Source of the DNA: Escherichia coli | GTDB lineage: Bacteria > Pseudomonadota > Gammaproteobacteria > Enterobacterales > Enterobacteriaceae | Direction: 5' to 3' (one strand) | Length of the DNA stretch: 64,000 nucleotides | Assembly (NCBI RefSeq): GCF_016026235.1 | Contig: NZ_CP065613.1 | Part shown: positions 30,337-34,164 of the stretch, piece after piece | Position numbering within the stretch: position 1 is the first letter of the stretch | Layout of the letters: each line of letters opens with the position of its first letter | Notes under the pieces: model-generated | Seen by the model: only the letters and a program-made list of their open reading frames with translations | Databases searched by the model: none | What the model was told of the DNA's origin: nothing | Made by a program: the position numbers and the translations under genes

Positions 30337-31230
30337 ATGAATGGAAAATTGCAAAGTTCAGATGTAAAAAACGAAACTCCGTACAATATTCCCTTATTGA
30401 TTAACGAAAATGTGATCTCCAGCGGAATTTCTCTGATCTCGCTCTGGCATACCTATGCCGACGAGCATTACCGGGTGATCTGGCCGCGGGACAAGAAGAA
30501 ACCGCTTATCGCCAACTCATGGGTTGCGGTGTATACCGTACAAGGATGTGGGAAAATTCTTTTAAAGAATGGCGAACAAATAACTCTGCATGGCAACTGT
30601 ATTATATTTTTAAAGCCAATGGATATTCACTCTTATCACTGTGAAGGTTTAGTCTGGGAACAGTACTGGATGGAATTTACCCCCACCAGTATGATGGATA
30701 TTCCCGTTGGTCAGCAAAGCGTTATTTATAATGGCGAAATTTATAATCAGGAACTCACCGAAGTTGCTGAGTTAATAACTTCACCAGAAACAATAAAAAA
30801 TAATCTGGCAGTCGCTTTTCTGACGAAAATTATTTATCAGTGGATTTGTCTTATGTACGCAGACGGTAAAAAAGATCCACAACGGCGGCAAATTGAAAAA
30901 TTAATTGCCACTTTACATGCCAGTCTGCAACAACGCTGGAGCGTAGCCGATATGGCTGCCACGATCCCCTGTAGCGAAGCCTGGTTGCGTCGTCTGTTTT
31001 TACGCTATACCGGCAAGACGCCGAAAGAATATTACCTCGATGCGCGTCTGGATCTGGCGCTATCGCTATTAAAGCAACAAGGAAACTCGGTTGGCGAAGT
31101 CGCTGATACGCTCAACTTCTTCGACTCCTTTCATTTCAGCAAAGCCTTTAAACATAAATTTGGTTATGCGCCTTCAGCCGTGCTAAAGAATACGGACCAG
31201 CACCCAACGGATGCCAGTCCACACAATTAA
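30337..31230 (+). CDS. yidL: AraC/XylS-family transcriptional regulator
   Basis: Trimmed to [11 protein letters not shown]... (297 aa) with GGAGGG RBS; C-terminal AraC-type HTH; divergent from yidK. Confidence 0.8.
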
Positions 31231-32549
31231 CGTAACTCTGGCCAGTACGCTTTGTTGGCCTCCAGCAACTCATCCAGAATAGCTTTGGCGACCGAGGCGC
31301 TCGGTACCGTTTTCGACAACGTAATCGCCTGCCACAGGTGCTGATATGAACGCTGTTCCCAGGCGTCCACGACCAGTTTTTCCACCGCCACTTGCTGACT
31401 CATTAACCCTTTCTGAAACTGCGGGATATCGCCGACCACCAGTGGTTCTGGTCCGTTGTGCCCGACCAGACACGGGATCTCGACCATCGCTTCATCATCA
31501 AAGTTATGAATTGCCCCGTTGTTAGGCACAATCAGCAACATCCGCTCCTGTGTGTTGAAGGCAATTGCCGCCGCCAGATCGACGATGTATGACGCATGTT
31601 CGTCAATTTCCAGCTTGCCCGCCGCTGAATTTCCTGCCGCCGTAATGGCGCGGCAAGCATCGAAAACCTGTTTCTCGCGATGTTCCATCACCTCATTCGC
31701 GCGAGTATGTTCAGGGTTGGAATGCTGAACGACATAATCCGGGAAGAGATAATATTTCAGATAGGTGTTCGGCAATGTATCCGGGTCCAGTGCCTGGACA
31801 TCCCGCGCTTTTGCATAGGTGTCGTTCCAGCTCGCTTCAGTATGCGTATCTTGCTGCGGTGGAACATAACCGTGCTTAGAGACATATTGCCGCAGCTGGG
31901 GCATCAGGTCGTTGCCCTGCAAATCTTCAATTGATGTCCACCAGCCAAAGTGGTTCAGGCCGTAGTAGCGCACGCGCATCTGTTTGCGATCTTGCAGCCC
32001 AACAATTTGCGCCATCCGGCTTTCAATGCCGATTGGCATGTCACAGATGTTGAGGATTTTCGCATTCGGGCGCAGACGACGCGTGGCTTCTGCGACAATT
32101 GCTGCCGGGTTGGAGTAGTTGAGCATCCAGGCGTTTGGTGAATATTTTTCCATATAATCCACCAGTTCCAGGACGCCGCCAATTGAACGCATGCCGTACG
32201 CTATTCCGCCGGGTCCGCAAGTTTCCTGACCAACAACGCCGTGGCGCAGCGGGATTTTTTCATCCAGTTCGCGCATCGGGTATTTGCCGACGCGGATGTG
32301 CGCCATGACAAAATCAACGTCGCTAAATGCCACTTCAGGATCGGTGGTGTAACTAAACGCAATATCCGGCGCTTTTTCTTTAAGAATGACTTTACAGGCT
32401 TCGGCAATCACTTCCTGCCGCGCACCATCGTTATCATAAAATTTCAGTGCACGAAGCGGGAAACGGTCCTGATTCGCCAGGAGCATCAACACGATGCCTG
32501 GCGTAAAGGTGCTTCCACCGCCTGCGACAACCACTGAGAATTTGGTCAT
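31227..32549 (-). CDS. glvG: 6-phospho-alpha-glucosidase, glycoside hydrolase family 4 (NAD/Mn-dependent); reads as an intact 440-aa ORF here
   Basis: Full-length GH4-like translation with N-terminal [12 protein letters not shown] nucleotide-binding motif. Confidence 0.8.
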
Positions 32550-33034
32550 TATACTGCCTCCGTAATGGCAACATTTTCTGCTGATTGATGAGAATTAATT
32601 AAGCTATCGAGCTGTTCACGCAGCTGGGATACATGCAGACCAATGATCACCTGAATGGCATCGCCACTACGGAAGACGCCGTGCGCTCCCAGCTTTTTAA
32701 AGACTTCGTCATCCAGCGTTTGTGACATGTCATGCAGTGCAATACGTAGACGCGTCGCGCAATTGTTAATGCTGGAGATATTGCCGACCCCGCCCAGGGC
32801 TTGCAGGATACCGGCAGCCTGATCCAGCTCTTTTTTTGGCTCTGCAGCGGTGGTTTGGCCTCGCGAGGCTTTGTATTCGGCTTTTGAGTAGAGTTTCACT
32901 TCCGCATCTTCACGTCCCGGCGTGCACATGTTGAATTGCAGAATCAGGGTGCGGAAAACCACGAAGTACAGCAGGGTAAAGCACAACCCAATGGCGATTT
33001 GGGTCAGCATCATATCCGCGTGGTTGCTGAACAT
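32549..33034 (-). CDS. glvB: PTS alpha-glucoside EIIB domain, in a different frame from EIIC
   Basis: 161 aa from MFSNHADMM...; contains the EIIB motif NCATRLR. Confidence 0.7.
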
Positions 33035-33066
33035 CGGGATCCAGTTTTGCGGTAAAACCTGGTCAA

Positions 33067-34164
33067 TCAGACCTCCGCCCATGTTGCCACCACACCAAAG
33101 AGATACATTACGGTCGACATTGAGGCCGCAAGCACAGCGTGTACCGCAAACAGCAACGGTGAAATGAACAGGAAGGTAAATTCCAGCGGTTCGGTAATTC
33201 CCACCAGCATGGCGGTTAAGGTTGCGGGAATCAGCAAGCCCGCCACTTTTACCCGATTTTCCGGTGCGGCAGTGAAGTACATCGCTAAAGAAATGCCCAC
33301 GGCACCAAAGATTTTTGAGTTACCGTGCAGGGCAAAACCGCCTTCCGGGAACAACGATTTCAGCGGCTCGGCGCTCAGACTGAACTCTTGCAGATGCTGC
33401 GCCCAGTACATCTGAATGCCGCCTTCAACAGCTGCCGGACCAAAGATAAACGGTCCGTAGATGAAGTGGTGTAAACCGGTTGGGATCAGAATACGTTCGA
33501 GGAAGGTGTAAACCCACACCCCAAGCGCACCCGCCGAACGCAGGAACGCTTGCAGAGATTCAATCCCCATTTGTACTTTTGGCCAGCCGAGCAATGTCAG
33601 CCAGGCACAGGGGATCATCACCAGGAAGGCGATAATCACCACATAAGACGTCCCCTGGAAAATGCCGAGAAAAACCGGCAGTTTTTTATCGAACAGACGG
33701 TTATGCAGCGCCGTCACAATGCCGGAAATGATAATTGCGCCGATAATGCTGGTATCGAGGGTTTTAATCCCGGCCATCATTGTCAGACCGCTACCTGCCA
33801 CCGCGTCCTGAGTGAAATCGACGCCGAAGTAGCTTCCCCAGGTCATTCCCATCGCATTGATGAAATAGTTCCAGGTCAGGAAACTCACCATCACCGCCAG
33901 ACAAGCACGCCCCTGCGCTTGCTTAGCAAGGCCAATGGGTAAACCGACAGCAAAAATCAGCGGCATATTACGGAATACCGTCCAACCGCCCTCTTCAATA
34001 ATGTGTACGATTTGCGCGAATAAACTGTTTGGATCGGTCAGTGATTCCCCGACAAACATCGGGTTTTGCAGCAAGATGGCAAGACCCACCACAATCCCGG
34101 CGAAGGGAAACAGCAGCACTGGCGTAAACATCGCGCCGCCAAAGCGTTGAATTTGACTGAGCAT
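33067..34164 (-). CDS. glvC: PTS alpha-glucoside EIIC domain; frame break before the EIIB domain
   Basis: 365 aa from MLSQIQRFGGAMF... with a GAGG RBS; the EIIC ORF end overlaps the EIIB ORF in another frame. Confidence 0.7.
   Translation of the reverse strand: MLSQIQRFGGAMFTPVLLFPFAGIVVGLAILLQNPMFVGESLTDPNSLFAQIVHIIEEGGWTVFRNMPLIFAVGLPIGLAKQAQGRACLAVMVSFLTWNYFINAMGMTWGSYFGVDFTQDAVAGSGLTMMAGIKTLDTSIIGAIIISGIVTALHNRLFDKKLPVFLGIFQGTSYVVIIAFLVMIPCAWLTLLGWPKVQMGIESLQAFLRSAGALGVWVYTFLERILIPTGLHHFIYGPFIFGPAAVEGGIQMYWAQHLQEFSLSAEPLKSLFPEGGFALHGNSKIFGAVGISLAMYFTAAPENRVKVAGLLIPATLTAMLVGITEPLEFTFLFISPLLFAVHAVLAASMSTVMYLFGVVATWAEV

Follow-up and report, generated by a model that had tools for sequence, protein, structure and literature searches.

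The stretch analysed here, referred to throughout as the window, comprises 64,000 nucleotides of an Escherichia coli chromosome (NCBI RefSeq assembly GCF_016026235.1, contig NZ_CP065613.1), and this study concerns its glv locus, an alpha-glucoside phosphotransferase system (PTS) operon in which glvG, the gene for a 6-phospho-alpha-glucosidase, lies next to a permease gene, glvCB, that is split between two open reading frames (ORFs). The gene order is yidK-yidL-glvG-glvCB-yidP-yidE. In the ORF list, glvG and the ORFs for the two permease parts, enzyme IIC (EIIC) and enzyme IIB (EIIB), all lie on the minus strand, and the strand opposite the glv genes holds short ORFs only, none of them supported. 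A first-pass annotation, made from the sequence alone, had reported an EIIC ORF ending at 33067 and an EIIB ORF in another frame; both were found, and their origin is the main subject of what follows.

The glvCB pseudogene, a frameshifted gene for an aglA-type single-chain EIICB, occupies 32549..34164 on the minus strand and is 1616 nt long, compared with 1617 nt in the relatives fetched as closest, FDAARGOS_943 (L001, 99.9% identical) and L002. The upstream ORF (33067..34164, minus strand) extends from 34425 in its longest form, and the start supported by homology is the ATG at 34164, with AAGAGGA upstream. From this start it encodes 365 amino acids, namely native EIIC residues 1-359 followed by six out-of-frame residues (ATWAEV), and ends in a TGA at 33069-33067. 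The downstream ORF (32549..33082, minus strand), with 177 codons from Met362, carries the last hydrophobic helix, the TPGRED linker and the EIIB domain with the CATRLR cysteine. The two ORFs are in different frames (34164-33082 = 1082, which is 2 modulo 3) and overlap by 16 nt. A base-by-base comparison with both relatives revealed one indel only: one G is missing on the coding strand from a GGG run at codon Gly360, so that GG stands at 33087..33088 (minus strand) and GTG GGC AAC is changed to GTGGCAAC. Where the window has two ORFs, both relatives have one annotated 1617-nt coding sequence (CDS; 538 amino acids, WP_000952127.1), and re-insertion of one G in silico yields a 538-amino acid protein identical to WP_000952127.1 over all residues. 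A single base sets the window apart from its nearest relatives at this site, and the frameshift is not a chance pattern. The first-pass annotation had proposed an ancestral EIICB gene disrupted by a frameshift within 33034-33082; the proposal holds, as one G repairs the gene, and the alignment to intact EIICB genes places the lesion 5 nt upstream of that interval.

Profile searches assigned the permease to TIGR02005 (alpha-glucoside-specific PTS IIBC). The intact relative covers positions 1-524 of this profile in one stretch with 959.2 bits, the EIIC ORF of the window corresponds to positions 1-360 (677.7 bits, with a cut-off of 607.3) and the EIIB ORF to positions 361-524; the next-best family, glucose IIBC, reached 316 bits, under its own cut-off. 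Among Pfam domains, PF02378 (PTS_EIIC) was found in the first ORF and PF00367 (PTS_EIIB) in the second, and no EIIA domain was matched in either permease ORF or in the intact protein. In the window, EIIC and EIIB lie in two frames and not on one uninterrupted polypeptide, and since the ORFs are split by a 1-bp deletion, the gene is a pseudogene of the TIGR02005 family rather than a functional member. In a Kyte-Doolittle scan of the intact protein, the final hydrophobic segment spans residues 384-412 and precedes the TPGRED linker (residue 415) and the CATRLR cysteine (residue 469). This segment is downstream of the break, and the second ORF therefore begins within the membrane domain, as the first-pass annotation had supposed from a peptide that starts at residue 17 of that ORF. 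The GITEP motif at residue 322 is upstream of the break and is retained in the EIIC fragment.

The neighbouring glvG (31227..32549, minus strand), an aglB/glvA-type gene of glycoside hydrolase family 4 (GH4), is intact, with 440 codons and a stop, as indicated by its ORF, its Pfam domains and structure alignments. Its product is identical to WP_000160112.1 of both relatives, and the full read-through and intact N-terminal motif noted in the first pass are thereby upheld. Both Pfam domains are full length: the N-terminal Rossmann domain PF02056 at residues 6-184 (profile positions 2-182 of 183) and the C-terminal domain PF11975 at residues 195-415 (positions 1-211 of 211). GlvG aligns without gaps to Klebsiella pneumoniae AglB (PDB 6DUX; residues 1-439 to 4-442, E value 1e-275) and to Bacillus subtilis GlvA (PDB 1U8X; residues 3-439 to 28-464, E value 6e-225), and far more weakly to phospho-beta-glucosidases (1S6Y, E value 1e-61). 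Comparison with AglB and GlvA disclosed no internal truncation. The N-terminal dinucleotide-binding glycine motif and the C-D-M-P and H-F-G-W motifs are identical to the corresponding AglB and GlvA columns, and GLNHFGWW is conserved in the GlvA alignment; from structural work on GlvA, we take C-D-M-P and H-F-G-W to have metal-binding and catalytic roles. The glvG ATG overlaps the permease stop (TAATG), which suggests that translation of glvG is coupled to that of glvCB, and for the same reason the frameshift probably lowers glvG expression as well (polarity).

In an intact operon, the single-chain EIICB would import alpha-glucosides and phosphorylate them at O-6, with phosphate relayed from phosphoenolpyruvate via enzyme I, HPr and EIIA-Glc (Crr), and GlvG/AglB (GH4, NAD+/Mn2+-dependent) would split the phospho-disaccharide into glucose-6-phosphate and the aglycone. 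K. pneumoniae AglA is a single-chain EIICB without EIIA that uses the EIIA-Glc of E. coli, and B. subtilis GlvC, likewise a single-chain EIICB, works with E. coli Crr (PMC5309279). The activities of AglA/AglB and GlvC/GlvA were demonstrated with the genes from Klebsiella and Bacillus expressed in a K-12 host; the glv homologues native to K-12 are described as cryptic or truncated/non-functional (PMC5309279). A search of the available literature on glvG, yidP and glvBC returned nothing on the E. coli glv homologues beyond that paper. By likeness to AglA and GlvC, the E. coli permease would be expected to depend on Crr, and by homology GlvG is predicted to hydrolyse 6-phospho-alpha-glucosides in an NAD+/Mn2+-dependent manner. 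In the window strain, a recent 1-bp deletion in the GGG run at codon 360 shifts the frame and brings a stop 7 codons on. The break falls after the second-last hydrophobic segment of EIIC and ahead of the last one, and parts the EIIC body (residues 1-359, with GITEP) from the final helix, the linker and the phosphoryl-transferring EIIB domain. The lesion, the single-gene ancestry, the inherited status of the allele and the integrity of glvG are shown by these data; with the permease truncated upstream of its final helix, transport has most likely been lost in this strain, leaving the operon cryptic despite an intact hydrolase. Taken together, it is highly probable that an ancestral single EIICB gene was broken by a lineage-specific frameshift and that the operon is cryptic though glvG is intact.

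The K-12 strain MG1655 carries different lesions at the same locus. Its annotation lists glvC (368 amino acids), glvB (161 amino acids) and a glvG pseudogene (b3683, b3682 and b4556), the last in agreement with the first-pass annotation. K-12 keeps GGG, its glvC/glvB split is a CAG-to-TAG amber mutation at codon 369 (Q369, window-equivalent 33061), and the start of its "glvB" (MFSN) corresponds to window position 33034. The window and K-12 thus do not share a lesion, and the sequences indicate that the two strains were broken 9 codons apart by independent events. K-12 glvG lacks 508 bp corresponding to 31441..31948 of the window (minus strand), a segment that the 8-bp direct repeat AGTGGTTC borders on either side; this stretch, present in the window, is deleted in most locus-carrying E. 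coli. In the population set of 5,426 complete RefSeq E. coli genomes, about 4.5 kb around the glv locus has matches in 5,418, the glv locus itself is carried by 4,279, and 1,147 are without it entirely. The 31441-31948 stretch is kept in 1,652 of the 4,279 carriers, and the 508-bp deletion is accordingly the majority state among them (about 61%), intact glvG being a substantial minority and not rare. With different lesions in different strains, the first-pass view of a partly cryptic, strain-specific locus was well founded.

Further lesions were found among comparison loci. In L012, the window haplotype carries in addition a CAG-to-TAG nonsense mutation at glvG codon 252 (Q252; window-equivalent 31796), and in this sub-lineage the hydrolase gene is beginning to decay after the permease. 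The same G is missing in L007, whose haplotype shows 93 differences across 4.7 kb (about 2%); because single-nucleotide polymorphisms (SNPs) stand 15 and 21 nt upstream, independent recurrence is likelier than import by recombination. L013 has two additional G residues in the G run of the lesion site, and in L011 a stretch of 10 bp (ATCTCTTTGG) is deleted, 16 nt upstream of that run. The lesions of L007, L013 and L011 map to window-equivalent 33087-33104. In L014 and L015 the permease gene is damaged at nt 889 and 951, and one RefSeq strain has an insertion sequence (IS), IS1, in the EIIC part. The sample thus holds, at codons 354-369, the missing G on two haplotypes, the GG insertion, the 10-bp deletion and the K-12 amber mutation 9 codons downstream, and the G run around the lesion may be a local slippage-prone spot in what is a biased sample. 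It is doubtful that glvCB has a recurrent break point at codons 354-369, which encode the loop preceding the final EIIC helix and contain the GTGGTGGG run. The comparison loci were retrieved by the exact 177-amino acid downstream ORF, which favours shifted frames that stay open to about nt 1070-1100 and hence nearby lesions, and for this reason we do not claim a hot spot as a finding. If the break point were truly recurrent, it could stem from a local mutational hot spot together with selection to switch off the permease, whose loss could avert the build-up of non-metabolisable phospho-alpha-glucosides after glvG loss; alternatively, a cut at codons 354-369 could leave a usable two-chain transporter.

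The last of these ideas leads to the alternative that survives best, in which the split is tolerated and reinitiation at the ATG at 33082 or 33034 supplies a second chain, made up of the last helix, the linker and EIIB, that forms a working two-chain permease with EIIC(1-359). Several points weigh against a loss of transport. The native ATG of Met362 (33082) is only 13 nt upstream of the new TGA and in the original frame, the motifs survive in the two fragments (GITEP at 322, CATRLR at 469), and glvG is intact. Separately expressed IIC and IIB domains are active, and certain engineered PtsG variants, homologous to this permease, retain activity when split. Breaks within codons 354-369 also occur in K-12 and three other strains. 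The substrate range assumed above is that of K. pneumoniae AglA/AglB, whose substrates include isomaltulose, trehalulose, turanose, maltulose and leucrose, and of B. subtilis GlvC/GlvA rather than that of an E. coli strain with an intact locus. On the other side, no recognisable strong Shine-Dalgarno sequence precedes 33082 (GGUGG only), the cut lies within the membrane domain and not in the flexible linker, and the clustering of breaks is inflated by retrieval via the exact 177-amino acid ORF. Moreover, the L012 sub-lineage has since lost glvG by its nonsense mutation, and other strains broken near the site are also without a functional glvG owing to the 508-bp deletion, which argues for decay rather than maintenance. 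We therefore regard a working two-chain permease as unlikely and retain the reading of a permease inactivated by the frameshift.

A second alternative is that the gene is really intact and its missing G reflects an error of sequencing or assembly in a homopolymer. A change of GGG to GG is a typical homopolymer miscall, and none of the 4,067 complete RefSeq genomes that have the stretch reaches 99% identity to the 80-bp junction allele of the window. An exact 32-mer across the deletion likewise had no match in species-representative genomes or JGI metagenomes, a null result that is uninformative because these sets hold one genome per species, or metagenomes. However, the exact 365-amino acid truncated product, including the ATWAEV tail, is spread over 25 blocks of public assemblies, which include Logan assemblies of several sequencing runs and, in two of the blocks, contigs longer than 1 Mb; it is present on 13 contigs, the longest of 4,678,414 bp, and in four NCBI records (EFK6635006.1, EFK6690236.1, EHD3363654.1 and HAI2282864.1) named "PTS transporter subunit EIIC [Escherichia coli]". 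The Logan assembly of SRR12047143 (L006) shares 100% identity with the window across 5.5 kb, deletion included. Over the alignable part of about 62 kb, the window differs from FDAARGOS_943, which is without the glvCB deletion, by about 30 SNPs and two 1-bp indels, of which the second, at window position 20659, is in the ilvN-uhpA intergenic region. With this one other indel outside coding sequence, the source assembly is not indel-prone, and an error-prone assembly was ruled out as an explanation. On balance, the deletion is best regarded as a genuine lineage allele that is inherited and of fairly recent origin, and a sequencing error is very unlikely.

The names glvC and glvB imply that EIIC and EIIB are naturally separate genes, and K-12 is indeed annotated with two distinct CDSs. 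The NCBIfam model NF007255, a 161-amino acid "equivalog" named "PTS sugar transporter subunit IIB", points the same way; its profile positions 1-161 correspond to residues 378-538 of the intact protein and match exactly the K-12 GlvB fragment (window 32549-33034; L001 3550-5166). Because this model was built on the K-12 fragment, intact 538-amino acid permeases are labelled "subunit IIB", and the RefSeq name on the intact EIICB appears to be an annotation artefact inherited from a pseudogene. The K-12 split consists of the amber mutation at codon 369 only, in an otherwise continuous frame, and the exact K-12 junction 81-mer is present in 348 of 4,274 genomes; among the junction matches listed, every one spans 81 bases, in frame. 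The break in the window lies before the last membrane helix and not in the linker or at a domain boundary, and was in none of the 4,067 genomes. A natural gene pair, which the first-pass annotation had considered as the contrary case, is refuted by the single 538-amino acid CDS in L001 and L002, by the coverage of the one-chain TIGR02005 profile and by the repaired protein, and is hardly credible. Programmed ribosomal frameshifting or transcriptional slippage restoring the full-length protein, with the overlapping ORFs as its one point in favour, has a practically negligible probability, because absence of the allele from all 4,067 complete genomes is at odds with a conserved arrangement and GTGGCAAC offers just a GG dinucleotide at the site, with neither a slippery heptamer nor a long homopolymer.

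The locus is flanked by two regulator genes, both annotated in L001, L002 and K-12. The AraC-type regulator gene yidL (30337..31230, plus strand; Pfam PF12833, PF00165 and PF02311) is convergent with glvG, and their 3' ends overlap by 4 nt. The GntR/UTRA-type regulator gene yidP (34460..35176, plus strand; PF00392 and PF07702) is divergent from glvCB, and its position makes its product a candidate regulator of the glv operon. In the intergenic region between these divergent genes (34165..34459), the AAGAGGA ribosome-binding site lies 9 nt upstream of the glvCB start codon at 34164. A promoter and RNA scan of 31100-34520 gave no match to a sigma-70 consensus promoter and terminator-like hits at background level only, and no Rfam family matched in 29500-37500.

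Elsewhere in the window, the main difference from FDAARGOS_943 is in IS content. An IS4-family element of 1,290 bp at 12301-13590 disrupts adeQ, with a 12-bp target duplication (GTGGTCATCCCC), and is not present in the nearest RefSeq genome; its transposase ORF covers only positions 1-245 of a 340-position profile, and the element may itself be damaged. FDAARGOS_943 has IS1 copies, each adding 769 bp, at three of the window-equivalent positions ~4566, ~5277, ~7838 and ~30181, and an IS5-family element of about 0.9 kb at ~5277, all of which the window lacks. Its yidE (window 36024) and yidB (47875) are annotated with internal stops, with single SNPs relative to the window there, and the window yidE ORF is open (561 amino acids); the window strain and FDAARGOS_943 each seem to have their own private pseudogenes. 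Window positions 1-1714 do not align to the fetched corresponding region of FDAARGOS_943.

The first-pass observation of an intact glvG beside a split permease is confirmed and its interpretation supported, with three corrections that concern where the lesion lies, what splits the gene in K-12 and how frequent the glvG deletion is. What the K-12 annotation calls glvC and glvB are two halves of one broken gene, which different lineages have broken differently. We predict that the window strain does not grow on alpha-glucosides such as isomaltulose, despite its intact phospho-alpha-glucosidase. Both the glv system and the fact that it is cryptic in E. coli were known before, and the allele represents routine lineage-specific pseudogenisation; the locus illustrates, on a small scale and cleanly, how an accessory sugar pathway is repeatedly and independently pseudogenised, rather than new biology, and its relevance is mainly to annotation and strain phenotyping.

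Among the closest known systems is the glv locus of E. coli K-12, at the same site between yidL and yidP in DNA about 99% identical and likewise split between EIIC and the last helix with EIIB; it differs in that the split is an amber mutation and not a frameshift and in that its glvG has the 508-bp deletion, whereas glvG is complete in the window. The aglA-aglB pair of K. pneumoniae shares the two-gene logic and a permease in the common TIGR02005 profile, and GlvG differs from AglB by scattered substitutions only, as visible in the printed alignment; unlike aglA, the permease gene of the window has a -1 frameshift at codon 360. The maltose PTS encoded by glvA-glvR-glvC (malA/malP) of B. subtilis is functional and has another regulator and gene order, the regulators in the window being of GntR and AraC type. 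E. coli PtsG (EIICB-Glc, PDB 8QSR) has the EIIC-linker-EIIB architecture in common with the intact permease and aligns over residues 3-530 (E value 1e-57), with GITEP (322), TPGRED and C-x-TRLR in register and CATRLR (469) opposite CITRLR. PtsG is distant in sequence and has another sugar specificity, and in contrast to the glvCB of the window it is intact and essential for glucose uptake by the PTS.

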